Shown here: positions 1,560 to 20,000 of the stretch, one piece after another
Layout of the letters: every line of letters starts with the position of its first letter
Position numbering within the stretch: position 1 is the stretch's first letter
Origin: Folioceros fuciformis
Lineage: Eukaryota
Length of the DNA stretch: 20,000 nucleotides
Assembly: GCA_049999805.1 (NCBI GenBank)
Contig: JBNGIO010006285.1
Span: 277,248-297,247, forward strand
Direction of reading: 5' to 3'
Notes under the pieces: generated by a model
What the model was told of the DNA's origin: nothing
What the model saw: the letters and a program-made list of their open reading frames with translations, nothing else
Database searches by the model: none
Made by a program: the position numbers and the translations under genes

Positions 1560-4139
1560 CGATGTGTGAGAAGCTTTGGGCTAGGTAACAACTTTTGTAG
1601 ATGGATTGCAATGCTTTGTGAGGATGCAGGTGCAATGGTCTCTATGAGCGGATCCTTTACCGATAGGATTGATATCAAGAGGTCGGTACGTCAAGGATGC
1701 CCTCTAGCCCTGTTCATGTTCATCATTGTCACTGACTTTCTTCTGCAAGCAATTAAGTAGGACTTAAGGATTGAAGGCATTCAGAATCCCGACGACTCGC
1801 AGCTATGCATCTCGGCCTTTGCTGATGATACCCTGTTATTCTCATCTGCAGATACGACGTCCTTAACGGCCTTGCTCTCCAAGGTTCAGATTTTTGGTCA
1901 GCTATCAGGGTGCAATGTGAATTGGAGCAAGATTAGGATTATGTGCGTTAACATGCAGGAGGAGCCACCCGACTACATTAGACACATTATGCGGGTCCAG
2001 CCCAGCTCGTCACACAAGTACCTAGGCCTGTCATTCCAAGAAGAGGATGAGAATGCTGAGATTGGTAAATATGTCTGCCTCAGGTTCATTCAGAAAGCAA
2101 TCAGCTTATGCCTTTTGGATCTTAGTCTTGCAAGCAGAATCGTGGTCATAATCCATATTTTGACCACTTCCTTGTGGTACTATTTGTTCTTATGGGCCCC
2201 CAGGAAGGTGGACCTGATAAGGCTGCAACAGATTATTTCCAACTTCTTGTGGAGTAAGTCGAAGGAGCTGCTCTCCCCTTCCCATGAGATGGTGTGGCAT
2301 CATATAATACAGAGCAAGCGTTTGGGTGGGCTTGGACTAGTGGATCCCACTTGCAAAATGAAGATCCTTCATGCGCAATGGGTTCTGAAGGCAGCTGGCC
2401 CAATGGGCTACCCCCGGAAAAGTTGGTTAACCCAACACTTGCAGCAAACTCAAGCGGTGGTCCCGGGGTGGAGGTCTATTGACAACTTATTGGCGAATAG
2501 ACCCTTGCTTGACACTAGGGAGTGCTCTCCACTCTTTATCTCAATTTGGCGCAGCTTCTTGGAAGTTAAAACCTTCCTTAACTCAGTCCTGCCCAGGAAT
2601 AGGGATGATGCACTGGGCCTCCCTCTCCAAGGGTTCAAGGGGCTTTGGTCATAGGAATTCCGTTCGCGGGTGTGTCGATCCCAGATTTTTGTTTCCGCTG
2701 GTAGAAGAGGCATTGTGCAACTCGGGCACCTATGGAACCGAGTAGAAGAAGGATGGAAAACAGTGGAGAAGGTTCGAGAAGAGTTTGGGACTCCGGTTAG
2801 ACATGTGAGACTAATGCTTTCATGGCTACAAAAAGGGATGGCAGAAGAGGTGAAGCAAGCGTTATTACGGCAGGCCCAGGTGGGCATTCACACCCTATGG
2901 AAGATAGGCTGAGAGATTCCGACTAGAAGGGGGATGCAGCCATTCCAGACTTTGACAGGGCAGTGCTTGTATCATCTCTGACAGACGACAATGGGAATCT
3001 ATCCTACAGGACTTTGAGCACAGAGGGGCTTCTGGAGGTTATAGGCAGAGAAGAAGGTATGATCGGTGGAGTGTGCTTGAGGGGGATTACCACGCTTTAC
3101 AAGGCGAGGCGAGCGGGTCATTGGCTTACCCAAGAACAGCATGATAGCAAGAAACAACCTCCGTATCGAAGTCCTGTAAGATGTTGGTTTCGCTTGACGG
3201 AGAATTGGAAGTTAGTGATGAGACATGACCTCTATACGTGGCTTGTGACCTCTGGAAGTATACAGAAGAATGCGAGGTCACTCTTCAACTTTCCTTCGAG
3301 CACCATCTACCTTTGGTTGGTGCGCACACAAAAATCTCCTTAGCGAGGTCAACTGGCTCCTAGGTTGAGGCTCTCCTAGTGTCGCCAAAGGGCAACGATC
3401 AAACTCTTGTGGTCGACCATTGGGTTAGTCCCCAAGGTGCGGATTACCATCAAGTGTTTCTTCCAAGCTTGTTTGCCTAACGTGGATCGCCGGGATGGGT
3501 TGTTGGCGGCCACGGGGGAGGAGTAGTGCAGGCTTTGTACTGTTGACGCCCCGCACAAAAGCCAACATATCTTCTTCCAATGTGACTATGCCCAAGGTGT
3601 CTAGATTGAAGTTGGCAGATGGCTCCAAAGTCTTCTCCCGGAGAGAACCATTGTGGTTGCAAAGCAAACTGCCCTATTCGGGCTACATGCGCTGACAGGA
3701 GAGCCGCTCGTTCAGAAGCAATGGTGGGGAGTGGTGTGGTCTCTATCTCTTTGCGCCCTATGACAAAATTGGACAGCTATGGTCTATGGCGGGAGTAACC
3801 CGATATCAAGGAAAGCTCTGCTTTGGCATATCTGGGAACAAGTCCTAGTGATGGCGGAGAGCATTCGTACTTCCGCTCCCAACAAGTTCAGACGGACAGA
3901 GTGGAAGGCAGCTGGATTCCTCAGGCATAATGGCCAGTGAAATCACTCCTGCCCGTGGGAAAGGTAAGCCACACATTGACGAGAGATCTCTCGCTTGCAC
4001 GATAGATCAGATTTGTTCACCTCTGCAGTCTAGAAATTTGCAAATAGACTAACGCCTTACACAATTGCGCGTGCAAGCGCTGTACTCTGGATGTAGCTTG
4101 AGCTACGGATAATCAAATTTTTTTCTTCGCGAAAAAAAT
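1560..4139 (+). mobile_element. 5'-truncated, degenerate non-LTR retrotransposon (LINE, L1/Tx1-like ORF2: RT plus zf-RVT-like knuckle)
   Basis: One frame from 1566 to 2654 (single in-frame TAG at 1758) reads 'FG....FCRWIAML..SVRQGCPL...AFADDTL..FGQLSGCNVNWSK..KYLGL..FLW..GGLGL'. A Cys/His knuckle 'CRLC...SQHIFFQCDYAQ' lies at ~3525-3600. An A-tract at 4132-4138 is followed by the TSD. Confidence 0.9.
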
Positions 4140-7853: not shown

Positions 7854-8756
7854 AATCGGTGAACAAAAACAGTATAGGTGATAACAAGCCAAAGGTTGAT
7901 GATTCACACTACAACGTTGTTGATCATGAAAATTTTCGAGAAGAATCAATATTTCGAGTAGACAGGAAGGGGGCTAGAAATAAGTGCTGATGGCAGCTCT
8001 CTACATTGTGCACACCCTTAACACTGGTGGCTTTATACAAAACAACATTATGGGCTTATCTCTTGGGCTAAGTCACTTTTGTGATTTTTTCTGGATTTGC
8101 GCTTAGATGTTCTGGTTAAGATTTGGCTTTGATGATTATTTTCATAGTAGTACAGTAAAATAAAAATTTAATGTATGTGTTTCTTCCTAAACCCTAATTT
8201 GATACATACAATTATTTTATCAAAAGTTTTCACCCTGCGACAAAAGTCTCACTGACCTGCTGAGAACCTTGGAGAGAGTTAGCATCATAGCAATACTTGA
8301 AGCCTCTCCGTCTAAGAGGTTATGCTGCAAGTCAGGCCCTGATGGTGAAATAAGAACGACCTTATATATAGGCATCGTTGTCCAAGAGTGACTTTTGCAC
8401 TTACCACCGTCCGTTCACTCCGTGGGTGAGTATCATCTTGCTTCACTGATTTGCCCAGAATGATCCTGCTCCATTCCCTCGACGGATGGGCCAGCATACT
8501 TAGGTAACTGCGGATGGAAGCTCCAGCTGCATCGCCGTCCTGACCAATTTACATCCACGTCTATACAATTCAGACACAGACCAACCACAATGAGCTTTAT
8601 CTGGCAGCGAACGCGATCAAAATTTGTGATTGAATCACATGCCTGTGAGTGTCCTACAAAACAACCATGGACTTGAGATGAACATGGGGAACTAACCCAC
8701 AACACTTATGCTGTTGAAGCTGTTGGCGGTTCAAAAGATGCACATGTTGAAAGTTT

Positions 8757-8873
8757 TTAGTCAGCTTGAACGTCCTGCAACAACTTGAGAGTGTGTGGCA
8801 CAAGGTCCACGCCTTTGTTTCGACCAGAAGATCCCGTAACTTCACATATGTATCTTGGCTGTCACAATGTTTT
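8757..8873 (-). pseudogene. Frameshifted remnant of the proximal DYW domain downstream of the PPR stop
   Basis: Removing one A from the run at 8870-8873 gives GDQK-HCDSQDTYVKLRDLLVETK (consensus GDxxHPxSxxIYxKLxxL). The original frame then reads GVDLVPHTLKLLQDV (consensus GYVPDT..L.DV) up to TAA at 8757. No HxE or CxxC follows. Confidence 0.65.
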
Positions 8874-11800
8874 CTGATCCCCAACAACGAACACGTGTGC
8901 ATTTCCATTCAAGTCCATCCACCAGGTGCGTCCTGCTTCTTTCCAAGCTTGTGACTCTACTCTCATTTCCTGAACCTTCTTCGCCTCCTGTGGAATGTGA
9001 GCAGCGGCATAGATATTTGACATCAAAATGTATGCTGCAGCGTCACTTTTGTCCAGCTTCACAGCGAATTCAAATGCCTGCCTCCCAAGCTCCACATTGC
9101 CCCAATTTCGACAGGCAGCCAAAAGGCATTTCCACACTCCACTGTCAGGTTGGATAGGCATTGTCTTCACCATGTCCATTGCATCATGGATTCTGCCCGC
9201 ACGGCCAAGAAGATCAACCATGCAATTGTAGTGCTGCATCGTTGGGGTAATGCTATACTCCCTGCTCATGGCCAGAAACAATGCCTGGCCCCTGTCTACT
9301 AAACCACCGTGACTGCATGCGATTAGGAGACCAACAAATGTTACGTCGTTTGGCTGCAAGCCTTGCTTCTCCATCCTCCTGAACAGGTCAAAGACAATTT
9401 CACCCTCCCCTTGACGGGCGTATCCCCCTAGCAAGGCATTCCATGCTGTAATATCTTTACTGGGCACTCTGTCGAACACTTGCTGTGCATCCACCATGCT
9501 TGAACATTTGCCATACATGTCAATCAGACTGTTGGGTATAAATGAGCCAAGCTCTAAGCCAGCGTTCAAAATCTGGCCGTGAATCTCTCTCCCTTTCTCC
9601 AGACCGGCTACATTGCTGCACGCGTTGAGTGCACCAACATAGGTTCGCTCGTTAGGGATGACACCCTCCTGCTGCATTCGTGTGAACAACTGCAAAGCCT
9701 CTTCACCCTTGTCCATTTGAGCATACCCCAAGATCATGGAATTCCACGACACCACGTCACGCCTGGGCATTTTCTCAAACATCTCCCTGGCATCTTCCAG
9801 ACTGCCACACTTTGCATACGCATCGACAAGCATGTTCCCTACAAACAGATTTAACTCAAAGTCGTCCTTTCTGACATTCGCATGGATGGCTCTCACAGAT
9901 TCCAGACACAGCTTTCTAAGCTTTATCAAATCACCACCATTTCTCTCCGCTGACTCTACAATGGCAGTGCAAGCTTTAATTGCACCAACGTATGTTCGAT
10001 CATTTGGGACTACCCCTTCCTCTTGCATACGCGCATACAATTGCAAGGCCTCCTCACCCTTCGCCATCGTGGCATACCCCAAGACCATGGAGTTCCATGA
10101 CACCACAGAACGAACAGGCATATCTTCAAACACCTTCCTGGCATCCTCCAGGCTCCCACATTTCGAGTAAGCATCTACTAGCTTATTCGCCACAAACAGG
10201 TTCCCTTGAAAATTCCCCTTGACAACATTGGCATGGATGGCTCTCACAGTTTTGAGGTACTGTACTTTGTCCCCATCATCGTTGTTTCCTTCTCTGAGTT
10301 CTCCAATGGTACTGCAAGCTTTCAGTGCGCCAATATACGTTCTACTATTTGGCAACACACCATCCTCTTGCATCTGTGCATACAATCTTAGAGCCTCCTC
10401 ACCCTTCTCCATCTCAGCATACCCCAAGATCATTGCAGTCCATGACACCACATCCCGATCAGATAGATTCTCAAACACGTGCCTAGCATCCTCCAGACTC
10501 CCACACTTCGCATACGCATCCACAAGCATTGTCCCCAAGAATCTATCCAACGCCTTCCCCCCCTGTCCAATATCTGTATGGACGCTTCTGACAACCTCAA
10601 GGCATCGCTCTTTCCCACGTGTTCCATGACCAACATTTATGTCCACCAGTTCTCCGACAATACTACAAGCTTTGAGCACAAGAAGATGCGTCTGGTCGTT
10701 CGGAACCGTACCAACCTCCCTCATCTGTGTGTACAACTGCAAAGCCTCTTCAGACTTCTCCGTCTGGGAGTGCCCCGAGATGATGGAATTCCACGAACCA
10801 ACATCCCGACGAGGCATTTCGTCAAAGACCCGCCGAGCGTCCTCCAGGCTCCCACATCGTGAGTAAGCTTCTACAAGCATGTTCCCCACAATCACACTTG
10901 ATGAAACGTTCCCACCTCCAAAGTCTGTGTGTATGGCTCTCACAGTTTCCAAACACTGTCTGCTAACAGCTACCACGTCACACCCGTTTCTGTGCCCCCA
11001 TTCCGCAACGGCAATACAAGCCGTAAGGGCACCAACACAAGCTCGCTCATCGGGAAGCACACCTTCCAGCCGCATTTTCCTGAACATAAGCAAAGCATCT
11101 TCAGCCCTACCCATCTGAGCGCACCCAAATATCATGACAGTCCAGGAAACCACAGTACGAACAGGCATACGCTCGAAGACCAGTCTAGCATCCTCGAAGC
11201 TTCCACAGTTTGAATACGCATCCACCAACGTGTTTCCCACAAACACATTCCCCTCACAGTTCGACTTCCTCACATCCGCATGGATGGCTCTCACGGTGTC
11301 GAGGTATCGTCCTTTGGCAACACAGTCATCACCATCCACCGATCCTAAAACAGCAGTGCAAGCTTTGAGTGCAGCCACGTACACCCGATCGTTAGGAACC
11401 ACACCCTCCTGGTGCATGCGTTTATACAATTCCAAGGCCGCTTCGCCCTTTCCCATCTGTGCGTAACCCGAAATCATGGAGTTCCAAGAGACAACATCCC
11501 GGTGAGGCATCTCCTCAAACACCCTCCTAGCATTATCCAAGCTCCCACATTTCGCATAAGCGTTCACAAGCATGGTTCCCACATAGATATCAGTCTCCAA
11601 GCCATTCCTAACCACTTCTGCGTGAATATACTTGGCAGTACTCAGGTCCTGCAGGCCACTGCACGCCTTCAAGAGAAGGACAAAGGTATGTTGCCCTGGT
11701 TCCACCCCATGCTCCCGCATATCCTGATACAGCTTGAGAGCCTGCCTACCGTGCCCAGACTTGCTTTGCTGCGCTATCAATGTCGTCCAGGAACTTTCCC

Positions 11801-11987
11801 CTCCCTGGTGTCTGAACTGCCCATCACAACTGGAGCTACTTGTCCAGCTGCCCCTGCCAAACAGTGCGTCCTCCCGCAGAGCATTTGTCACACAATTCAG
11901 CTCCCTGACGCCCTCAGTGCTCGATCTAACGACTCCCACAGGACATTCTAATCCAAACAAGCCAGAGACTCTGTGAGAGGTGAGCAT
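8862..11987 (-). CDS. PLS-class pentatricopeptide repeat protein (24 motifs including five LL), E1-E2 plus truncated DYW:WW domain; organellar RNA editing specificity factor
   Basis: Intronless ORF with the first in-frame ATG at 11987 (the track starts at a TTG at 12038). Array P-L-S,(P-LL-S)x5,P-L-S,P2-L2-S2 (VVSWNSMI.GY, LKAC, YAKCGSLEDAR.VF, ACSHGGLV, HYNCMVDLLGRAG). E domains follow, and the protein ends in KEAGRTWWMD...HVFVVGD. Confidence 0.95.
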   Translation of the reverse strand: MLTSHRVSGLFGLECPVGVVRSSTEGVRELNCVTNALREDALFGRGSWTSSSSCDGQFRHQGGESSWTTLIAQQSKSGHGRQALKLYQDMREHGVEPGQHTFVLLLKACSGLQDLSTAKYIHAEVVRNGLETDIYVGTMLVNAYAKCGSLDNARRVFEEMPHRDVVSWNSMISGYAQMGKGEAALELYKRMHQEGVVPNDRVYVAALKACTAVLGSVDGDDCVAKGRYLDTVRAIHADVRKSNCEGNVFVGNTLVDAYSNCGSFEDARLVFERMPVRTVVSWTVMIFGCAQMGRAEDALLMFRKMRLEGVLPDERACVGALTACIAVAEWGHRNGCDVVAVSRQCLETVRAIHTDFGGGNVSSSVIVGNMLVEAYSRCGSLEDARRVFDEMPRRDVGSWNSIISGHSQTEKSEEALQLYTQMREVGTVPNDQTHLLVLKACSIVGELVDINVGHGTRGKERCLEVVRSVHTDIGQGGKALDRFLGTMLVDAYAKCGSLEDARHVFENLSDRDVVSWTAMILGYAEMEKGEEALRLYAQMQEDGVLPNSRTYIGALKACSTIGELREGNNDDGDKVQYLKTVRAIHANVVKGNFQGNLFVANKLVDAYSKCGSLEDARKVFEDMPVRSVVSWNSMVLGYATMAKGEEALQLYARMQEEGVVPNDRTYVGAIKACTAIVESAERNGGDLIKLRKLCLESVRAIHANVRKDDFELNLFVGNMLVDAYAKCGSLEDAREMFEKMPRRDVVSWNSMILGYAQMDKGEEALQLFTRMQQEGVIPNERTYVGALNACSNVAGLEKGREIHGQILNAGLELGSFIPNSLIDMYGKCSSMVDAQQVFDRVPSKDITAWNALLGGYARQGEGEIVFDLFRRMEKQGLQPNDVTFVGLLIACSHGGLVDRGQALFLAMSREYSITPTMQHYNCMVDLLGRAGRIHDAMDMVKTMPIQPDSGVWKCLLAACRNWGNVELGRQAFEFAVKLDKSDAAAYILMSNIYAAAHIPQEAKKVQEMRVESQAWKEAGRTWWMDLNGNAHVFVVGDQKTL

Positions 11988-12501
11988 ATCGCCACAAAGG
12001 TCAGACCAAGCCACATAGCAGCCCAAATCTACCGCCAAGGAACCGAATGCTTCAAAGATTTTTCAGTCACCTCCATCTCTTTTCAGTGTTGGCCGTAGCT
12101 CCAAATTCTCAGGGTCTCAAAAAAAAGATCGCTCCAGAATGCCTGCAGCATCACATGACAAGAGGACATGCAACGCATTATCCAACACTACATGACCTTG
12201 CTACCTACATAAGCACACCTAACCTACCATACATGAACTGACATATATTTATAATGCTCAAATAAATATAATAATATCAATCAATATTTTATTTAAAATT
12301 TTACAAGCTTCATGTAATCATTTTGGTGTAACCTTTATAAATTTTTTATTAGATATTTCAAACTCATATGTGTTATTCACATTTTTAAAAGAGACTCTAT
12401 GCATACTTTGATTAGAAGCTAGAAAGATCCAACTATCCACCTTCGTAGTATTACCATACCCTAATATTTTGCTCTAAAGTAGAAGCTTTACGTCTACTTA
12501 A

Positions 12502-13623
12502 TTACTTACTGCTATAATACTCTAATATTCTACCATAAAGTAACTGCTTTAATTCATGTTGGGACAAATCGGCTAATCCAAGAATCTCAAACTGGGACCA
12601 CACCTTGGACCAAGCATCTACACCACAAGTTTTTTGTTCTTGAGCTCCCACTTCAAAACAAGATTGTAACAAAACCTCTTTAGCTATGATGACTAAGTTG
12701 GAACTACAAGTCTTCAGTCCTTCCTTCTTTCCAAAAAAGGGATGTCTCAAAGCTTCTTCAGCTGTGATAGCTTTTTGCTTACTTTTCACAGAAAGAAGAT
12801 GGAGTAGTGATACAACCATAGGATCAGCTACACGACATCTATCTTTATGATATCTTGTAATGTTTGTCTTCAAATCTACTTCAACTGGATATGCACTTGA
12901 TAATATTTCCTCGAAGATGCTAGCTACATCCCAAATATCAATGAAGGAGTGTTTTAAAGACGTCTTTGGCACACCATAAGCTTGAGGTCCTAAGTGAAAA
13001 TCTAGTGATGGATGGAGATAGTACCCATTAGTTGGCATGGCTCGAGCTAACCCAAAATCACATATTTTAAGTAAACCGTTAGAGTTTACTAGTATGTTGC
13101 TGGACTTCAAATCTATGTGGACAACATTCATGGAATGCAAATACTGTACTCCTGAAAGGATTTGGTAGAGGAAATCTCGTTGTTCATCTGTAGATAAATT
13201 TGAGTCGTTTAGCACTGCAGAAAGATCATTAGCCATGAGTTCCGTCACTATGTACACATCATCAAAATCTTCGTTTGGTGGAAGAAATACATCTTTGAAT
13301 TGAACAACATGTTCGTGTCTTAATGATTGAAGTAAGGCTAGTTCTCGGAAGGTGCTTAGAATTATGTCTCGATTGTTGAAGAGATGTATGCGTTTGATGG
13401 CCACATTTTCTCCTCTTGTCAAGTCTTCAGCAGCATATACCATTCCGAAAGCTCCCTGACCTAAATATTTCATCACATGGTATGATGATTGAATACCATA
13501 ATTAGGAAAATAAGAACCAATTGGTTCGCTGTAATTACTCATCACCTTTCCAGTAACAAGCATATGATTAAGAAAGAGTGCAGTATATGCAATAACAATC
13601 GTCAGCATGTAAAAACCCTTCAT
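12502..13623 (-). CDS. Divergent intronless MAPK-like Ser/Thr protein kinase (group D/TDY-lineage-like) with hydrophobic N-terminus, lacking TxY and APE
   Basis: Intact 373-aa ORF with GQGAFG, VAIK, RE(L), 'LPP..DFDDVYIVTELM.NDL', 'FLYQIL', HIDLKSSN, KICDFGLAR, IDIW, 'ADP', 'TAEEALRHPFF' and a MAPK-type tail 'LKQLLYGRILEY'. Confidence 0.85.
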   Translation of the reverse strand: MKGFYMLTIVIAYTALFLNHMLVTGKVMSNYSEPIGSYFPNYGIQSSYHVMKYLGQGAFGMVYAAEDLTRGENVAIKRIHLFNNRDIILSTFRELALLQSLRHEHVVQFKDVFLPPNEDFDDVYIVTELMANDLSAVLNDSNLSTDEQRDFLYQILSGVQYLHSMNVVHIDLKSSNILVNSNGLLKICDFGLARAMPTNGYYLHPSLDFHLGPQAYGVPKTSLKHSFIDIWDVASIFEEILSSAYPVEVDLKTNITRYHKDRCRVADPMVVSLLHLLSVKSKQKAITAEEALRHPFFGKKEGLKTCSSNLVIIAKEVLLQSCFEVGAQEQKTCGVDAWSKVWSQFEILGLADLSQHELKQLLYGRILEYYSSK

Positions 13624-13668
13624 TTTAATAAGTGAACTTTAGACTTGAGAAGACAAAGTTTTAACTAG

Positions 13669-13917: not shown

Positions 13918-16479
13918 TCAGTGCCGGTCCATACAAGAACAGAACCCGCCCAGGAATCGATGAACTCGATGTGCATCCCTCACTATGATCTCCCGCTTCT
14001 CAAGCCGTGACATGATCTTGGTGCTGCTATGGCAGTCATCACACATGCGAAGATTTTTGGTAACTAGTAAAGTGGCGCCGTCTGCTGTATGCAGCAGGCC
14101 GTACGCCAACGCCAGTTTCTCGGCATGTCCACAGAGGGCATTCTCCTTTACCTGCTCACACCATGCGTTCAACACTAGCTCTGTTTGTGGCACATGGCCT
14201 CCTTCCTCCTTCAGCCTCGCATTCACACTCCTCGACTTACACACAACGTCAGGCCTTCCTTCTCCTACTGTGAACTCATGCACCTCGTTCTTCACTTCGA
14301 TGCATGCCTTTGCAGGCTTCTTCATGGCACCTGCCGACTTTCTCAAGCTCTCTATCCTTTCTGCATCGTGCCACCTGCCTGCTCTGGCATAGATGCTCCC
14401 CAGTAGGATGTACGCACTCGCATCATCTGCTTCCAGTTCTACAAGACGGTCGAAGCATCGTCTTCCACGCTCTACATCACCGTAGCTTTTGCAAGCACTC
14501 AGCAAAGCTGTCCAGGCAACAACGTCGTTCACAAATAGCCTGCTTCGCACCATGTTTTCAGCCTCACGCAGTTTTCCTGACCGCCCAAGAAGATCAACCA
14601 TGCAGCTGTGGTGATAATCAGTAGGCACAATCCCGCCGCGTTCTACCATCATCTTGAAATAATGCTGGCCTTCGTGCACCAGGCCCGCGTGACTGCATGC
14701 CACAAAGAGACAGATGTAGGTAGTCTCATCGGGCTCGACACCTTGGTTGAGCATCTCCTCAAAACACCAGATTGCCATGAGGCCGTCGCCATGTTCTGCA
14801 TACCCATTCAGCATGGATGTCCACGTCACCAAATCTTTGCTGGCTAATCCGTCAAACACGATGCGAGCATTTTCCAGACTCCCACACTTCGCATACAAGT
14901 CCACAAGGCTGCTGCCCAGAGACATGTCAGAGTCAAGGCCCTGTTCACGAATCTGAGCATGCAGTTGCTTTCCCTGATGAAGGGCTCCCACTTCGGCACA
15001 CGCTTTCAGAAGGCACATATAAGTGACGTTGTCAGCCGGAGTGATGCCCTCCTGCTGCATACTTGCGTACAGAGCCAGGGCATCCTGACTGAGTCCATGC
15101 TGTGTGTATCCCGTGAGCATAGTATTCCATGTAACCACATCCCTAGCGGGCAATGTGTCAAAAACTCTGCGAGCATCTTGCAGGCTCCCACACTTGGAAT
15201 ACATGTCCACGAGACAATTGCCAATCACTGGATCGCTTGCCAGTCCACATTTCTGAATTTGATCATGGAGCTGCTTACCCTGCTCCAAATCTCTCACACT
15301 GGCACATGCTTGAAGCAGGCACACAAACAGGGCACGACCAGTTGGAGTCATGCCCTCACGTTGCATCTGTGCATACAGAGCCAGAGCTTCTCGACCCAGC
15401 CCATGCTGAATATATCCTGCTATCATGGCAGTCCATGTCACATCATCTCTCGTGTGCAATCGGCAGAAAACACTATGCGCCTCCTCCAAACTCCCACACT
15501 TTGCATACATGGTAACCAAGCTGTTGGCAACGAAGACATCAACCTGCAGTTCACTGGCCAAAATATGGGCATGCACCTCCTTCCCAGAAGTCAGATCCTT
15601 TGCGGTGGCACAAGCCTTCAGAACTGCCACAAATAATCGATTGTCAGGCTTCAATGTAGAGTCTCTCATTTGTCGATAGAGCTGTATAGCCTGCGTGGGC
15701 TGCCCATGTCGAACATGCGCCAGAATGATGGTGGCCCACATATACACGTTTGGAGAAGTCACTCTGGTGAACACATGTATTGCGTCCTTCAATTTCGCAT
15801 GAGCAGCATACATAGCAATCAGGTGGTTTGCTAAGAAGGCGTTACACTCGAACCCACTCTTGACAGCAAGGGCATGAAGGCGCCTGCCTAGAACCAGATC
15901 CTTGTGAGCGATGCACCTCTTGAGACAAGCATAGAAGAGGAGAGGGTGAATATAACATCCAAGGTGAAGCAGTAGGTCCAAGGATTGCAGGGCATCTTCC
16001 AGTTGTCCCTCCTCGCAGCACTTGCTCATAACTTCAAATACAGAATCAATTCCAGATGCACATCCATGCCCAGCATCCCACTTGGCTAGTTGAGCGTCAA
16101 CCCACCCAGGCTTTCGACTGCTGTCCAGCCAGAGGGGTTCTTTCGATCCCTTGTGCCTGAAGTCAGGATGGCGGGAACTTCTCTTATCCCGCCTGTTGTC
16201 CCACCACCGTGCAGGATCTTGAAAAAAGACATGCCACAACAGCTCCTGTCGCTCTTTAGTGTGCCGGACTTCTTCGACCCTCGAAGAAGCACCTTCAGGT
16301 GTCCCTACACATCCTGGTTTGGCCGATGCGTGTCCATTCACACACAAGCTGGCTGAGGTGCGCGCAGAACCCCATAAGGATCCAGATCTTGGCTGCACCC
16401 TGTCCAGCACCCGGCGATGCTGAATCCAAAAAAATTGCGGATCCGAAGATGCCGGATGCGAGAGCGGCCGCTCCAACAT
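13918..16479 (-). CDS. PLS-class PPR protein with N-terminal OSB-type PDF motif and C-terminal DYW:KP (DRH-type) domain; candidate U-to-C organellar RNA editing factor
   Basis: Intronless 853-aa ORF. Residues ~80-131 read 'LW..FF.DP.RWWDNR.DK....HPDF.HK...EPLWL...P.WV..QL'. About 15 PLS motifs and E1-E2 follow. 'KKPAKACIEV' replaces the PG box, then CGHAEKLA, KNLRMCDDCH, IIVRDAHRVHRF and CSC-M-DRH. Confidence 0.95.
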   Translation of the reverse strand: MLERPLSHPASSDPQFFWIQHRRVLDRVQPRSGSLWGSARTSASLCVNGHASAKPGCVGTPEGASSRVEEVRHTKERQELLWHVFFQDPARWWDNRRDKRSSRHPDFRHKGSKEPLWLDSSRKPGWVDAQLAKWDAGHGCASGIDSVFEVMSKCCEEGQLEDALQSLDLLLHLGCYIHPLLFYACLKRCIAHKDLVLGRRLHALAVKSGFECNAFLANHLIAMYAAHAKLKDAIHVFTRVTSPNVYMWATIILAHVRHGQPTQAIQLYRQMRDSTLKPDNRLFVAVLKACATAKDLTSGKEVHAHILASELQVDVFVANSLVTMYAKCGSLEEAHSVFCRLHTRDDVTWTAMIAGYIQHGLGREALALYAQMQREGMTPTGRALFVCLLQACASVRDLEQGKQLHDQIQKCGLASDPVIGNCLVDMYSKCGSLQDARRVFDTLPARDVVTWNTMLTGYTQHGLSQDALALYASMQQEGITPADNVTYMCLLKACAEVGALHQGKQLHAQIREQGLDSDMSLGSSLVDLYAKCGSLENARIVFDGLASKDLVTWTSMLNGYAEHGDGLMAIWCFEEMLNQGVEPDETTYICLFVACSHAGLVHEGQHYFKMMVERGGIVPTDYHHSCMVDLLGRSGKLREAENMVRSRLFVNDVVAWTALLSACKSYGDVERGRRCFDRLVELEADDASAYILLGSIYARAGRWHDAERIESLRKSAGAMKKPAKACIEVKNEVHEFTVGEGRPDVVCKSRSVNARLKEEGGHVPQTELVLNAWCEQVKENALCGHAEKLALAYGLLHTADGATLLVTKNLRMCDDCHSSTKIMSRLEKREIIVRDAHRVHRFLGGFCSCMDRH

Positions 16480-17933
16480 CGCTATGCCAACTCCACTTCA
16501 CACCTGCACCAACTGGTATCCAGCTCCATGTTCATGCGGGCACTTCGCTGTAAGCGAATGCACGCCCGGGCATGCACCAGGACCCCGGATAGGGTAGGGC
16601 AGCCTTCTCCATACTAGGGGATCTCTGTTGCACCTCCATTTCGTCCTTCCCAACCGGATAACATAGCTTGGCAAACAGTTGCTCGTAGTACGAGCCTGAT
16701 GCCGACGATGTAAGATCCGGATTCCAAGTGCTCGCTTGATGCCTTGCTGCAGTGGGAGAAATCATTGCCTGCAGCATCGTTTCCTGGAAACCGATTTGAA
16801 GGTGCCACATGACTTGCTTAGGCTGGCCGGGGGCTTGCTCAACAACATTTACGTGCCTTTCCAGTCGTGTCGGAGTAGAAACGCGGCACTCAACATAGCT
16901 CTGAAAGTGCAACTTTTTTTTCAGGAGCCGTGAGAAGACATCTAGATGCTTGGATATTCGAGTCCTGGAGAATCCGACCACATCTGTCCCGTCCTGTACT
17001 CCCAGCACTTGCTGCGTCCACAGAAGAAGCCAATCGATCCCTCACAGTTTGCTCTTCCTTCCGACACACCAGTTGCGGTTGCCCCTGGCTGGAGCGTGCA
17101 TGTGGTTACCGCCCGAACACGCCATCCTTCACACTCCTACATGCACCTGTTATGGATAGTAACCAAAAACCTAATTCTGCGACAATGATCCTTTAGCAGA
17201 TCGTGTTCAAATCCCTGGCCCTGGTCTCAGCAGACTTCTCAGTGGTCAGTGTCCCATGGATGCTCCCTTTTCCGTCTCTTCCGGATGGATGCAGAGTATG
17301 AACATGCAAGACCAGCCCTCCATCTTGCGATTTCTTAGTTTAAAGGTCAAGCATTTGCAGCGTAAACGGAAAACAGAATTTTTTAGCCGGCGGTGGTGAC
17401 GTGAGAAATAGAAAGCTCCCCTCGTTGCAGAAATGTGAGAAGGCCTTCAGGAGCGAGTCTCAACAAGTCGGAACAAACTGTTAGGAAGCCTGGCAGGAGC
17501 GAAGGAACGTTGTCCTTGCCTGCTGCAGGCGATTCGATAAGATGACTGAACAAATTCTAGTATTGCCTACTGAATGGCCGGCCCCTGGGGGCCAAGGAAG
17601 CAGAGGCATGGAGGTGGGTTCAGCGACCAGCTCATGACCAACTGAAACAGGGCATCAAACCGCAAGAAGATGAGACCCATCTTCCACCAGTTGAGGCTAC
17701 GCAGTTGCATGGCCTCATCTTGTATAATAGCAAAGAATTTTGATATAGATACATCGAGTTTTTTAATTCGTCATAATGATAGATATGTGACCTGAACTAC
17801 TTGTTCTAGTACAACAGACTATAATATAATTTCCAAAATTGTCAAGACTAGACATAATGCAAGGAGAGCAGTACCAGCGCTGTCGAGGATACCCATGGCT
17901 TTTGTCTCGAAGGAAGAAGTAGAGCACGCTCTG

Positions 17934-18012
17934 CTACGACCTGACTGCGCTGCAGCTGCCTGTGCTAGCATCTGACAAAATTGTGATCCGCCTTACAGAC
18001 TTCATGAAATCC
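17934..18012 (-). CDS. ARF: Class C auxin response factor, last exon (end of PB1 domain)
   Basis: TGCAG| acceptor at 18013. The phase-2 join gives ...EQYR-DFMKSVRRITILSD...; TAG at 17934. Confidence 0.85.
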
Positions 18013-18134
18013 CTGCATGCACACGCAACCACATGCTCAGTGACATGTTTATAGCGACGATGTCTAAGACAGGAGAGAGTAGTATGCGCCAAGACTAGCA
18101 CAAATGTATGGTAAGGATGCGCATCTTCCAATAC

Positions 18135-19252
18135 CTGTACTGCTCGACCCCAACGTGAATAGGGGAGCCTTCGGCATCTCTGCACACCAGATTCTTTTGC
18201 AACTCCATCTTGTCCATGCCAAACATCGCAGACAATTTGGCAAACAAGTCGTCGTAGCTGGTGAAAAGTGCAAGATCAACCGTGCGACCCACCTCCTCGC
18301 TTTCCTTGAAAACCTTGCAGTGGGAGTAAGCATCGGATGAGGGATCTTTAGGCGCACTAGCACCACTTTGTTCCTTCATCCAAATCATGCTAGGAAAGTG
18401 GACTCCAGAGTCCACACTCCCACCCGGGAGCTGCTGATAATTGGCGTCCTCCCTTCCACTGCTGTCAGAGTAAAATCGCTGCAACCCTTCCCTAGTGTCA
18501 CCGTGGTACCCATCAGAGCCCCTACTGCTGGAACGGCGCTTCCGGCCCAAATCTTCACTGAAATGCAGATGAGAGTGGTCATCAGACGAGCTGCCACCCG
18601 AATGCTGCTGCTGTTGTTGCTGTTGCTGACGTTGATGTTGGTGCTGAGGCTTGGGCATGGTGGGGGTGACATTCTTGTCCGCTGGGTCAATAGCCTGACC
18701 GAAGAGCAGAAAAGGAGCAGTCTTGGGCACCGAGCTTGCCCCACAGCTAGGAGCCCCGTTGCTGGAGGGGTCACTGTTGTGCGAGACACTCCCCATCCCA
18801 ATCCAACCCGATGCCTTGCTGGTCACCCCCGACCAGTCCTGGTGCGAACTTGTATTCCTATTAGGCAGTGGCAAGCCGGCCACTTGCTCCTGGCGGTAGG
18901 CATTATCTAGGTGCATCCCTGTTCGACCTTTATTAGGACGGAAAGCTGACAATGCGAGCCCACAGATTCTTTCTTGCCTGGCTCCCTGCATGCCTGCAGG
19001 AACATCTTCCACAAGACCATGCCAAGGAGACATCTGCCTGAGCATATCGTTGGCCAGAGCTGCCATGGGCATCGCCATCATAGGAGTTTGACCTTGGACT
19101 TGGAGGGGAAGATCTGAAGGTTGCGAAGCTCGAAGTTTCTTCTTGGACAGGGAGAAGGGAGGGAGTTGCATGGGCAGGGTCGATACTACCTCCACCTGCC
19201 AGGGACTAACTCTGCTCACGCCTTGCAACAGGTCGGGTTCGTCCCAGCTCAC
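18135..19252 (-). CDS. ARF: Class C auxin response factor (ARF10/16/17-like), penultimate exon (end of DBD, middle region, PB1)
   Basis: VSWDEPDLLQGVSRVSPWQVE, PPFS..KKKLR, PAGMQGARQ (miR160 site), FLLFGQ (B3-repression-domain-like), poly-Q, HCKVF.ESEEVGRTVDL. Bounded by an AG acceptor (19253) and a GT donor (18134). Confidence 0.93.
18975..18995 (-). promoter_or_regulatory. miR160 target site in ARF mRNA
   Basis: The plus strand reads TGCCTGGCTCCCTGCATGCCT versus miR160 UGCCUGGCUCCCUGUAUGCCA (19/21; the internal difference gives a G:U pair). It lies in the AGMQGAR-coding segment. Confidence 0.92.
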
Positions 19253-19415
19253 CTGTACCCATCCATCATCATCCCGCCCAATCATCAGGCAACAGTGGCC
19301 AACACTGAGGAAGGTGCACTCACTACCCAGAATAGGGTTAAGCTTGCACACAACAGCAACAGCAACAGGAATCGAAACCGAAACAACCACAAGCTGCACG
19401 AAGCAAGAAACGGAC

Positions 19416-20000
19416 CTGGAGAACCCTCCAAGGAGACTTGGGCCAGAGATGCGGATCCGCTGGCTGCACCGCCTGGATAGTACCCATGAACCAGCTGATC
19501 CTGGACGAGTCTTCCGTCTCGAACGCCATCTTGAAACGCATCCCAGCGTACCAGGCATGATCCAAAGCTGCCTTCACCACATGAGCCTTGACACAGAATT
19601 CCGCAGTGCTGGCCCGGGGATAGTACACCACCTCGAACTGGTGCCCAGCCACAGCCAAAGACGCCGCTTCCATGACTGACTTGGCAGTGACCCGTGCCCG
19701 GTTCCGCGCGAAGCTGCTGCTACTGCTGCTGCTGTTGCTGCTGGAGAGAGCATTCTCTCCGAGAAATTCCGCCATGCCATTGTTGGCGCCGCCGTCGTTG
19801 CCCTTCACCTCCCACCTCGAGGGCCGGTGGGACGGCGGCACAGAAGAGGAAGACGAGGAGTGCCAGGAGGAGGAATCCCCGGGCCCGCTCGTCCCCCGCA
19901 TAGACCTGCGTACACCGACACAGAGCTCCCCGGTGGCGCTCCGCAGGAAGACGATGGCGTCCCCGGCCACCAGCTTCTTCTGGTTCACAAAGTTGCTCCA
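19416..20000 (-). CDS. ARF: Class C auxin response factor, exon with end of B3 domain and Auxin_resp region (gene continues beyond the window)
   Basis: WSNFVNQKKLVAGDAIVFLRS..GELCVGVRR, FEVVYYPRASTAEFCV, GMRFKMAFETEDSSRISWFMGTI, WPKSPWRVLQ, then a GT donor at 19415 (163-nt intron, phase 0). Confidence 0.95.

Follow-up and report, generated by a model that had tools for sequence, protein, structure and literature searches.

The stretch of Folioceros fuciformis DNA analyzed here (20,000 nucleotides of contig JBNGIO010006285.1, hereafter called the window) carries a nuclear, intronless gene at 13918..16479 on the minus strand that encodes a PLS-class PPR editing factor, in which a single OSB-type PDF module is joined to the N-terminal end of the PPR array. 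This PDF-PPR architecture and the homology of the protein are close to certain. It is tentatively proposed, at a little below an even chance, that the module would serve as an unspecific clamp on single strands, which may add affinity or keep the target site open. Taken as one composite reading, the architecture together with this clamp mechanism is slightly favored overall. The functions assigned below to the protein and its module are those that we infer, rather than ones that have been demonstrated. The features of the gene and its upstream region are as follows, with the basis of the assignments in brackets.

13918..16479, minus strand: open reading frame (ORF) of 853 amino acids plus stop codon, comprising presequence, PDF module, PLS array with E motifs, and DYW:KP domain
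16246..16479, minus strand: residues 1-78, presumed organelle-targeting presequence (unstructured N-terminal region in the predicted model)
16087..16245, minus strand: residues 79-131, single OSB-type PDF module (translation, homology, conservation, predicted fold)
16033..16086, minus strand: residues 132-149, short hinge that connects the PDF module with the helix pair at the start of the PPR-like series (translation; low predicted local distance difference test, pLDDT, score)
14320..16032, minus strand: residues 150-720, PLS-type PPR array ending in E1/E2 (Pfam, predicted helix pairs)
13921..14319, minus strand: residues 721-853, DYW:KP domain of 133 amino acids, DRH variant (residue positions, Pfam)
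16480..17132, minus strand: upstream stretch present in contigs of sequencing run X1 and contiguous with the ORF start, possibly a 5′ untranslated region (contigs, which resolve neither strand nor ends)

A preliminary description of this DNA, made from the letters alone, had located a PDF motif at 16087-16245 within an intronless frame of 853 amino acids and had left the strand of this PPR gene unstated. It was found that the gene lies on the minus strand and that both the coordinates and the frame are right. The frame and its translation run through 13918..16479 with no internal stop and no intron, and the PPR repeats, the E motif, the DYW_deaminase domain, and the DRH end are all in this same frame. 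The plus-strand reading of 16087-16245 opens with a stop codon; the minus-strand translation of these positions is 53 residues long, begins ELLWHVFFQDPARWWDNRRDKRSSRHPDFRHKGSKEPLWLDSSRKPGWVDAQL, contains the peptide reported earlier, and corresponds to ORF residues 79-131. An in-frame stop codon is located 6 codons 5′ of the ATG, and the first in-frame Met after Met1 is residue 151, which is 3′ of the motif. Therefore, the motif is expected to be translated, unless the protein starts without any presequence. Residues 1-78, which include 11 Ser and 9 Arg residues and have a net charge of +4, are presumed to be an organelle-targeting presequence, in view of their Ser/Arg-rich composition and their disorder in the predicted model.

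The relationship of the motif to known proteins was evaluated by a phmmer search with the 53 residues against 1,835,955,588 representative proteins, which gave 583 matches at E ≤ 1e-3; of these, 123 reached 1e-10 or lower and 14 reached 1e-30 or lower, and the similarity is far above chance. The best 150 of the 583 matches were scanned with Pfam in two halves of 75 (the first at E ≤ 1e-3 and the second at E ≤ 1e-4), and an SSB domain was found on 37 of these 150 (22 in the first half, 15 in the second). All motif copies were C-terminal of the SSB domain in 36 of the 37 SSB-bearing matches. One match, P0128, is annotated as 'OSB1, mitochondrial-like protein' and had an E value of 1.1e-10 in the library-wide phmmer search, and the cluster of another match, P0119, contains an entry named 'protein osb1 mitochondrial'. 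As aligned by BLASTP, the motif and P0128 share 29 of 53 identities (55%) over all 53 residues without a gap (E 1e-19), and the aligned segment of P0128 sits behind its SSB domain. These results substantiate the identification of the segment as a PDF motif, by significant similarity to the motifs of both OSB-named and SSB-bearing proteins. The preliminary description had allowed that there might be no significant match to an OSB PDF motif, and this possibility is contradicted by the phmmer search and by the alignment with P0128.

The exception to the order of SSB domain followed by motif is a 1160-amino acid model with 13 tandem PDF copies (P0004, from Kingdonia uniflora), 12 of them upstream of the SSB domain. 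In a 1526-amino acid model from Coptis chinensis (P0045), three PDF copies are located ahead of a kinesin motor domain. The architectures of P0004 and P0045 could be genuine or could be merged gene models.

The PDF motif has been described as a module of ~50 amino acids with a conserved Pro-Asp-Phe (PMC6963530). The motif reported here has this Pro-Asp-Phe signature at motif positions 27-29 (residues 105-107), among the core residues W82, P89, W92, W93, D94, R96, K99, P105-D106-F107, H109, K110, L116-W117, P124, and W126. An alignment of 21 short matches (A1) contained 12 invariant columns, all 12 of which are present in this copy; P27 and D28 were invariant and F29 nearly so, and all three were 96-100% kept in a larger set of 147 copies. 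The motif shares with the OSB proteins a module of ~50 amino acids, the pattern W..F..P..WWDNR..K....PDF.HK.....LW.....P.W, and an identical conserved core. In contrast to the OSBs, in which an SSB-like OB fold is followed by one or more C-terminal PDF motifs (PMC6963530, PMC4166229, PMC6451138), the module of this protein is N-terminal and single and is followed by a PPR array. Because there is no SSB/OB domain (Pfam gave no SSB match in the full protein even at E ≤ 1), the protein is not an OSB.

No Pfam-A family was placed on the motif, whether the full protein or the motif alone was scanned, and we know of no Pfam or InterPro model for it. A word-indexed search with the motif region gave no match among shorter proteins and only one (P0003) among proteins of near length; OSBs were missed by this index because it requires shared 5-mers. 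The ESM Atlas gave no usable match for residues 60-140.

Proteins of the PPR type accounted for 9 of the 150 best motif matches, and the named sources of PPR proteins among the motif matches were Ceratopteris richardii, Adiantum capillus-veneris, Pteridium aquilinum, Diphasiastrum complanatum, and Sphagnum compactum. In each of the 11 PPR proteins that were mapped (this one included), 1-3 motif copies were present, all N-terminal of the array. A hidden Markov model (HMM) of the motif was built from the 21-sequence alignment and applied, with a cut-off of 35 bits, to the 120 best relatives from a full-length search, and 40 of the 120 scored at least 35 bits. The list of 120 is biased, as the candidates were picked by words shared with the first 500 residues of the query, motif included, and the fractions given here for that list are not frequencies.

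Diphasiastrum entries: 29 of 41 motif-positive
Calypogeia fissa entries: 3 of 3 motif-positive
Sphagnum entries: 1 of 2 motif-positive
JGI or ENA entries without a species name: 5 motif-positive
Logan entries without a species name: 2 motif-positive
Entries grouped under seed plants (16 'Gb_', 1 Taxus, 2 Cryptomeria): 0 of 19 motif-positive
Fern entries: 0 of 14 motif-positive, with a single weak match of 23 bits

The 'Gb_' entries are presumably from Ginkgo, as judged by the prefix alone. It had been supposed in the preliminary description that such fusions might be common in hornworts and ferns; this was borne out and is now widened to lycophyte, fern, liverwort, and Sphagnum.

This distribution bears on the possibility that the module is a protein-protein surface, used for docking or oligomerization with other PDF-bearing proteins, with OSBs, or with the PPR or DYW part of its own chain. 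MORF proteins belong to seed plants, a point touched upon in PMC13386178, and it is conceivable that such a surface replaces helper proteins where MORF-type partners are absent; the named PDF-PPR proteins are all from non-seed plants, and none of the 19 PPR proteins counted as seed-plant (16 of them by prefix) was positive. The very different partner domains of the motif (SSB, PPR, and kinesin in the one model P0045) and its tandem arrays of up to 13 copies would also be consistent with docking. However, the many Trp, Arg, and Lys residues of the conserved core are in keeping with nucleic-acid contact, and reviews credit the motif itself with single-stranded DNA (ssDNA) binding (PMC6963530, PMC6451138). 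Protein docking, including any replacement of helper proteins, is in our estimation improbable.

The C termini of 42 PDF-PPR proteins (the 40 motif-positive relatives, the protein reported here, and P0132) were classed by a pattern search of our own. It was found that 20 of the 42 are PG-type, consisting of 17 with PG, HSE, and a D-Y-W-type end and 3 that are PG-like, with HSE and DYW or DSW ends. Another 19 of the 42 have no DYW pattern in this search, and 3 are KP-type: this protein, P0252 (KPAMA, HAE, and a GRP end), and P0277 (a KA variant of the box, HAE, and a DRH end). By Pfam analysis, four fern or lycophyte isoforms are likewise devoid of a DYW domain and terminate in an E motif or in PPR/TPR repeats. 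The first motif copy begins within residues 1-190 in all 42 proteins, and the named sources among the 42 are lycophyte, liverwort, and Sphagnum, ferns being represented among the matches of the motif search. These counts do not uphold the earlier tie between the motif and U-to-C enzymes. A check of co-occurrence with a profile of the motif had been suggested, and with the 21-sequence HMM the motif proved to be widespread and proved not to be KP-specific. As far as these sequences go, the PDF module accompanies a PLS subfamily in general, as an N-terminal accessory, and is not a hallmark of U-to-C editing. The PDF-PPR proteins are a large, apparently undescribed subfamily of spore-bearing land plants, in which 1-3 PDF modules are always located ahead of the PPR array and the C terminus is E only, DYW:PG, or DYW:KP.

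We consider it extremely unlikely that the protein is a DNA editor, in which the module would redirect the DYW:KP domain to single-stranded organellar DNA and thereby bring about base changes in DNA. The PPR array is generally known as a reader of RNA, and the module is also found on the 19 PPR proteins without the DYW pattern and the 20 ordinary PG-type factors, so that it appears not to be coupled to a special catalytic role. What speaks for DNA editing is the combination, in one chain, of a base-converting domain with a motif for which, in OSBs, a preference for ssDNA has been reported (PMC4166229).

Other PDF-PPR proteins include KAJ7517631.1 of Diphasiastrum complanatum, KAH7429238.1 of Ceratopteris richardii, KAI5061374.1 of Adiantum capillus-veneris, CAM6033764.1 of Sphagnum compactum, and the Calypogeia fissa entries, all of which carry only hypothetical or PPR annotation. 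They resemble the protein reported here in having 1-3 modules before a PLS array, with a linker of ~15-35 amino acids to the first PPR-like motif (as read from the sequence), whereas most of them differ from it in ending with an E motif or with a canonical PG/HSE/DYW domain. The closest motif relatives found were in P0003 and P0006 (~1370 amino acids, from a transcriptome), which are PLS-E proteins with three tandem N-terminal PDF modules; these module copies are 55-69% identical to the copy reported here.

The relationship of the PPR-linked to the SSB-linked copies was evaluated with 400 motif instances, taken from the phmmer-matched proteins, this protein (P0001), and P0003. A FastTree analysis was made of the 377 copies in which 40 or more of the 53 positions of the model were represented (23 were dropped), using 57 columns and giving weak supports. 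All 17 PPR-linked copies fell in a single subtree of 37 leaves, together with 17 unclassified copies (mostly short fragments) and 3 SSB-linked copies. The PPR label required 9 changes on the tree, compared to a mean of 16.8 when labels were shuffled, and none of 500 shuffles gave a number that low. The tree is read as clustering only; it is compatible with one old fusion and gives no order of events. When 62 PPR-linked copies were compared with 85 SSB-linked ones, conservation of at least 85% was seen in both groups at 15 core positions, including W4, P11, W14, D16, R18, K21, P27-D28-F29, K32, L38-W39, P46, and W48, and there were zero positions with a fixed difference between the two groups.

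The closest full-length relative is P0277 (828 amino acids with a DRH end), which has 56% identity over 91% coverage. Its motif copy is partly degenerate, with WQDCR in place of WWDNR and no Trp at motif position 48, and it scores 60.6 bits compared to 83.2 bits for the copy reported here. Together with this copy, the KA box of P0277, in place of KP, indicates that module and box are both variable within the DRH group.

Run X1 has contigs over 14485-15508, 15494-16501, and 16476-17132 that show 0 differences from the window and so cover the motif, in a region that is colinear with the genome and continuous to at least 650 bases 5′ of the ATG. No run recorded for this stretch, X1 included, bears an RNA label and a DNA origin is formally possible, and the contigs give no strand, ends, or level. 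Within the adjacent auxin-response-factor (ARF) gene, X1 contigs join 18011 to 18134 and 19250 to 19414, the gaps having CT..AC ends, which are GT..AG on the minus strand, and a further X1 contig joins 8560 to 8697. Such joins are the pattern expected from spliced RNA. Several bins of the window are without X1 cover, and no inference is drawn from them. Contigs of runs X2, X3, and X7 (from other organisms, 90-95% alike) cover PPR-coding parts, and as none of their listed pieces reaches 16087-16245, they are evidence neither way for the motif region. An A>G difference at 14041 (plus strand; U>C when read along the PPR gene) was present in all four runs, in contigs of high depth; it is taken to reflect conserved DYW-coding paralogues and is not read as editing.

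It is conceivable that an ancient fusion left the module behind with no present role in this protein, the module being removed together with the presequence or bypassed by a start at Met151, which is in frame and located just ahead of the first PPR motif; the degenerate copy of P0277 would be in keeping with this, and the start of the transcript is not definable from the contigs. Nevertheless, the copy reported here keeps all 12 invariant columns, its score of 83.2 bits is among the highest, and the core is kept in the 62 PPR-linked copies of distant plant lineages. The contigs of the spliced run also reach 650 bases upstream of Met1, and a start at Met151 would yield a protein with no presequence. 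We consider a relic to be very unlikely.

The PPR part of the protein was identified by Pfam as PPR (3e-63, 8 stretches) and PPR_2 (7.4e-62, 5 stretches), followed by E_motif at residues 666-727 (4.4e-16) and DYW_deaminase at residues 761-851 (2e-31). This order, in which E motifs and a DYW deaminase-like domain come after the tandem PPR motifs, is that of a PLS-class PPR editing factor. About 17 helix-pair motifs were recognized, in the order of a degenerate first P, L-S, three P-L-S triplets, P2-L2-S2, E1, and E2; this segmentation, motif by motif, is a manual reading of the sequence with no tool behind it.

Hornwort DYW:KP candidates of the DRH variant were reportedly described by Gerke et al. 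in 2020. The domain reported here is 133 amino acids in length from K721 to the end and begins with KPAKACIEV (residues 721-729), in which Lys-Pro replaces Pro-Gly. Domain positions 65-67 are HAE, with Ala before the catalytic Glu in contrast to HSE; Lys is present at position 88; the zinc ligands are kept in CDDCH at domain positions 93-97 (C93-x-x-C96-H97); and the protein terminates with MDRH. These properties agree with those published for the DYW:KP subtype, namely KP for PG (PMC11845758, PMC11332814), a length of 132-133 amino acids with no xHP and a conserved Lys88 (PMC9478123, PMC11845758), and a hydrophobic residue, usually Ala, before the catalytic Glu (PMC9478123, PMC11332814). Hornworts have two KP variants, DRH and GRP, and most KP domains are without xHP (PMC9478123). 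In line with this, the DRH end of the protein suggests a hornwort source. The view that the carrier of the motif is a PLS-E-DYW protein of the KP/DRH subtype was thus confirmed by the Pfam domains and by the KP, HAE, Lys88, and DRH residues. The domain has every sequence property of the DYW:KP subclass that we found, and the protein is a candidate for U-to-C conversion at a site set by the PPR code.

The closest solved chains to the domain are PG-type DYW domains, namely the synthetic PPR-DYW 9kfx (1.6e-32), OTP86 (At3g63370) 7o4e, and DYW1 7w86 (range to 2e-28). All are deaminase-like and share the HxE and CxxCH residues with this domain, which differs from them in having KP instead of PG, in being gapped at sHP (the alignment has gaps where 9kfx has the sHP segment), and in having Ala for Ser before the catalytic Glu. 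The designer proteins KP1-KP6 (Ichinose et al. 2022, PMC9478123) resemble this protein in the PLS array, E1/E2, and the 133-amino acid KP domain with HAE for HSE, no sHP, Lys88, the zinc ligands, and the DRH end. Designer KP proteins convert U to C (PMC9478123, PMC11845758, PMC11332814). They begin at the PLS domain, behind a Trx/His tag (PMC9478123), and the accessible text mentions no N-terminal PDF module for them, unlike the protein reported here.

AlphaFold2 predicted the motif alone, with 21 sequences, at a pLDDT of 92.8. The PDF motif is predicted to fold as a discrete mini-domain, in which two helices (2-9 and 48-52, motif numbering) flank short strands at 14-16 and 29-31. For the full-length protein with 21 aligned relatives, the mean pLDDT was 83.6. 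In this model, residues 1-72 had pLDDT values below 50, the 10-residue blocks over 71-130 (the module) had means of 74-89, and residues 136-145 of the hinge were again below 50. An unbroken solenoid of helix pairs follows from 142 to 716, mostly with pLDDT above 90, and leads into a mixed alpha/beta C-terminal domain. A search of PDB sequences with the motif gave only a chance match (E 0.92). The predicted module appears to have no solved relative in the PDB searches, from which a new fold does not follow.

PPR tracts bind single-stranded RNA in parallel, with the N terminus toward the RNA 5′ end and one motif per base, and in editing factors the target, which the E and DYW parts overlie, is located a few bases to the 3′ side of the footprint. 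Given this orientation of the PPR N terminus, the module would be located at the 5′ edge of the bound RNA. In the proposed mechanism, the PDF module, which is small, rich in Trp and Lys/Arg, and predicted to fold autonomously, would bind single-stranded nucleic acid while a hinge of ~10-20 residues ties it to the N terminus of the PPR solenoid. It would hold the strand immediately 5′ of the sequence-specific footprint, and this contact may add unspecific affinity or keep the site unfolded, while the PPR array would set the address and the DYW:KP domain would act on the target U at the 3′ end. Such a single-strand clamp is favored because reviews assign the ssDNA binding of OSB1 to the PDF motif, which is described as sufficient for this activity in AtOSB1 with no contribution of the OB fold (PMC6963530, PMC6451138).

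The main rival of the clamp is that the module keeps its OSB function and tethers the editing factor to ssDNA, which would concentrate it at the nucleoid for co-transcriptional editing. The reviews describe PDF motifs as ssDNA-binding and report that OSB1 and OSB2 favor ssDNA over double-stranded DNA or RNA (PMC6963530, PMC4166229), and the core residues are identical in PPR-linked and SSB-linked copies. However, a short hinge beside an RNA-binding solenoid suits contact with the same RNA strand equally well, and what supports the tether is entirely homology. We regard the tether as unlikely, although it is to be taken more seriously than docking, a relic, or DNA editing; its conceivable targets include the non-template strand of transcription bubbles, R-loops, and replication intermediates.

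Several points weigh against the single-strand clamp on a DYW:KP editing factor as set out above. The preference of OSB1 and OSB2 for DNA favors a DNA tether, and nucleic-acid binding by PPR-linked PDF modules is itself deduced from homology. The degenerate copy in P0277 indicates that the module may be dispensable in some lineages. No hint of a binding mode came from structure comparison, as Foldseek with the module model gave nothing in the PDB at E ≤ 0.001 and the best Z in a VIA-align comparison of the module with 48,161 chains was 2.4. The X1 contigs, from a run with no RNA label, convey neither ends nor strand, so that Met1 is a presumed start over Met151, and organelle targeting of the protein is likewise presumed. 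The U-to-C activity in the accessible literature is that of consensus designer KP proteins only, not of the natural protein reported here.

A broader form of the nucleoid tether, which we hold to be quite unlikely, sees in the PDF-PPR proteins of bryophytes, lycophytes, and ferns an ancient class of editing factors that would be anchored on ssDNA of the active nucleoid, would couple both C-to-U and U-to-C editing to transcription, and would have been lost in seed plants. If this were true, ssDNA anchoring would be a helper principle distinct from the MORF/RIP partners of seed plants, and the anchor would have been borrowed from the organellar ssDNA-binding machinery, with sites such as the displaced strand of transcription bubbles and R-loops.

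In the literature covered by term searches, no description of PDF-PPR fusions was found; primary OSB and hornwort PPR papers or their supplements may contain a mention. A term search in the accessible text of a 2026 kingdom-wide survey of editing-factor domain fusions returned neither OSB nor PDF. Because the motif has no Pfam-A match, surveys of editing factors that are based on domains would miss the module. The module and the enzyme family are each known, and their combination is seemingly unreported yet common in nature; in one lycophyte, the fusion was present in 29 of 41 listed proteins (a biased sample). The fusion joins a module of organellar DNA maintenance, from the OSBs, to RNA editing in the plant lineages that edit most heavily. 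Natural U-to-C factors are being made into programmable base editors, and the designs, as far as the accessible accounts go, omit the native N-terminal parts. A conserved, self-folding accessory module found on natural KP and PG factors is a candidate part for affinity, processivity, or target access in such editors, and a solved complex of the module with nucleic acid would be a novelty for the OSBs too.

Other features were observed in the window. A second PLS-class PPR gene is located 2 kb downstream at 8865-12062 (minus strand), with a frame of 1066 amino acids that has PPR and E motifs and no PDF motif; the frame stops a few residues past a PG-box-like stretch, with no deaminase domain in frame. 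Contigs of X1 cover 8110-11949, and the one skipped segment, of 136 bases (the join 8560/8697), is located past the stop codon of the frame. A complete protein kinase domain (1.4e-42) is encoded by an open frame at 12505-13638 (minus strand), which separates the two PPR genes. Near the window start, at 1761-2651 (plus strand), there is a fragment of a reverse transcriptase (RVT_1, 2.6e-07). The ARF gene is located at 17479-20000 (minus strand; Pfam ARF_AD 5.4e-23) and runs past the window end, and its introns at 18012-18133 and 19251-19413 were represented by spliced contigs in four runs, apparently from four related organisms.

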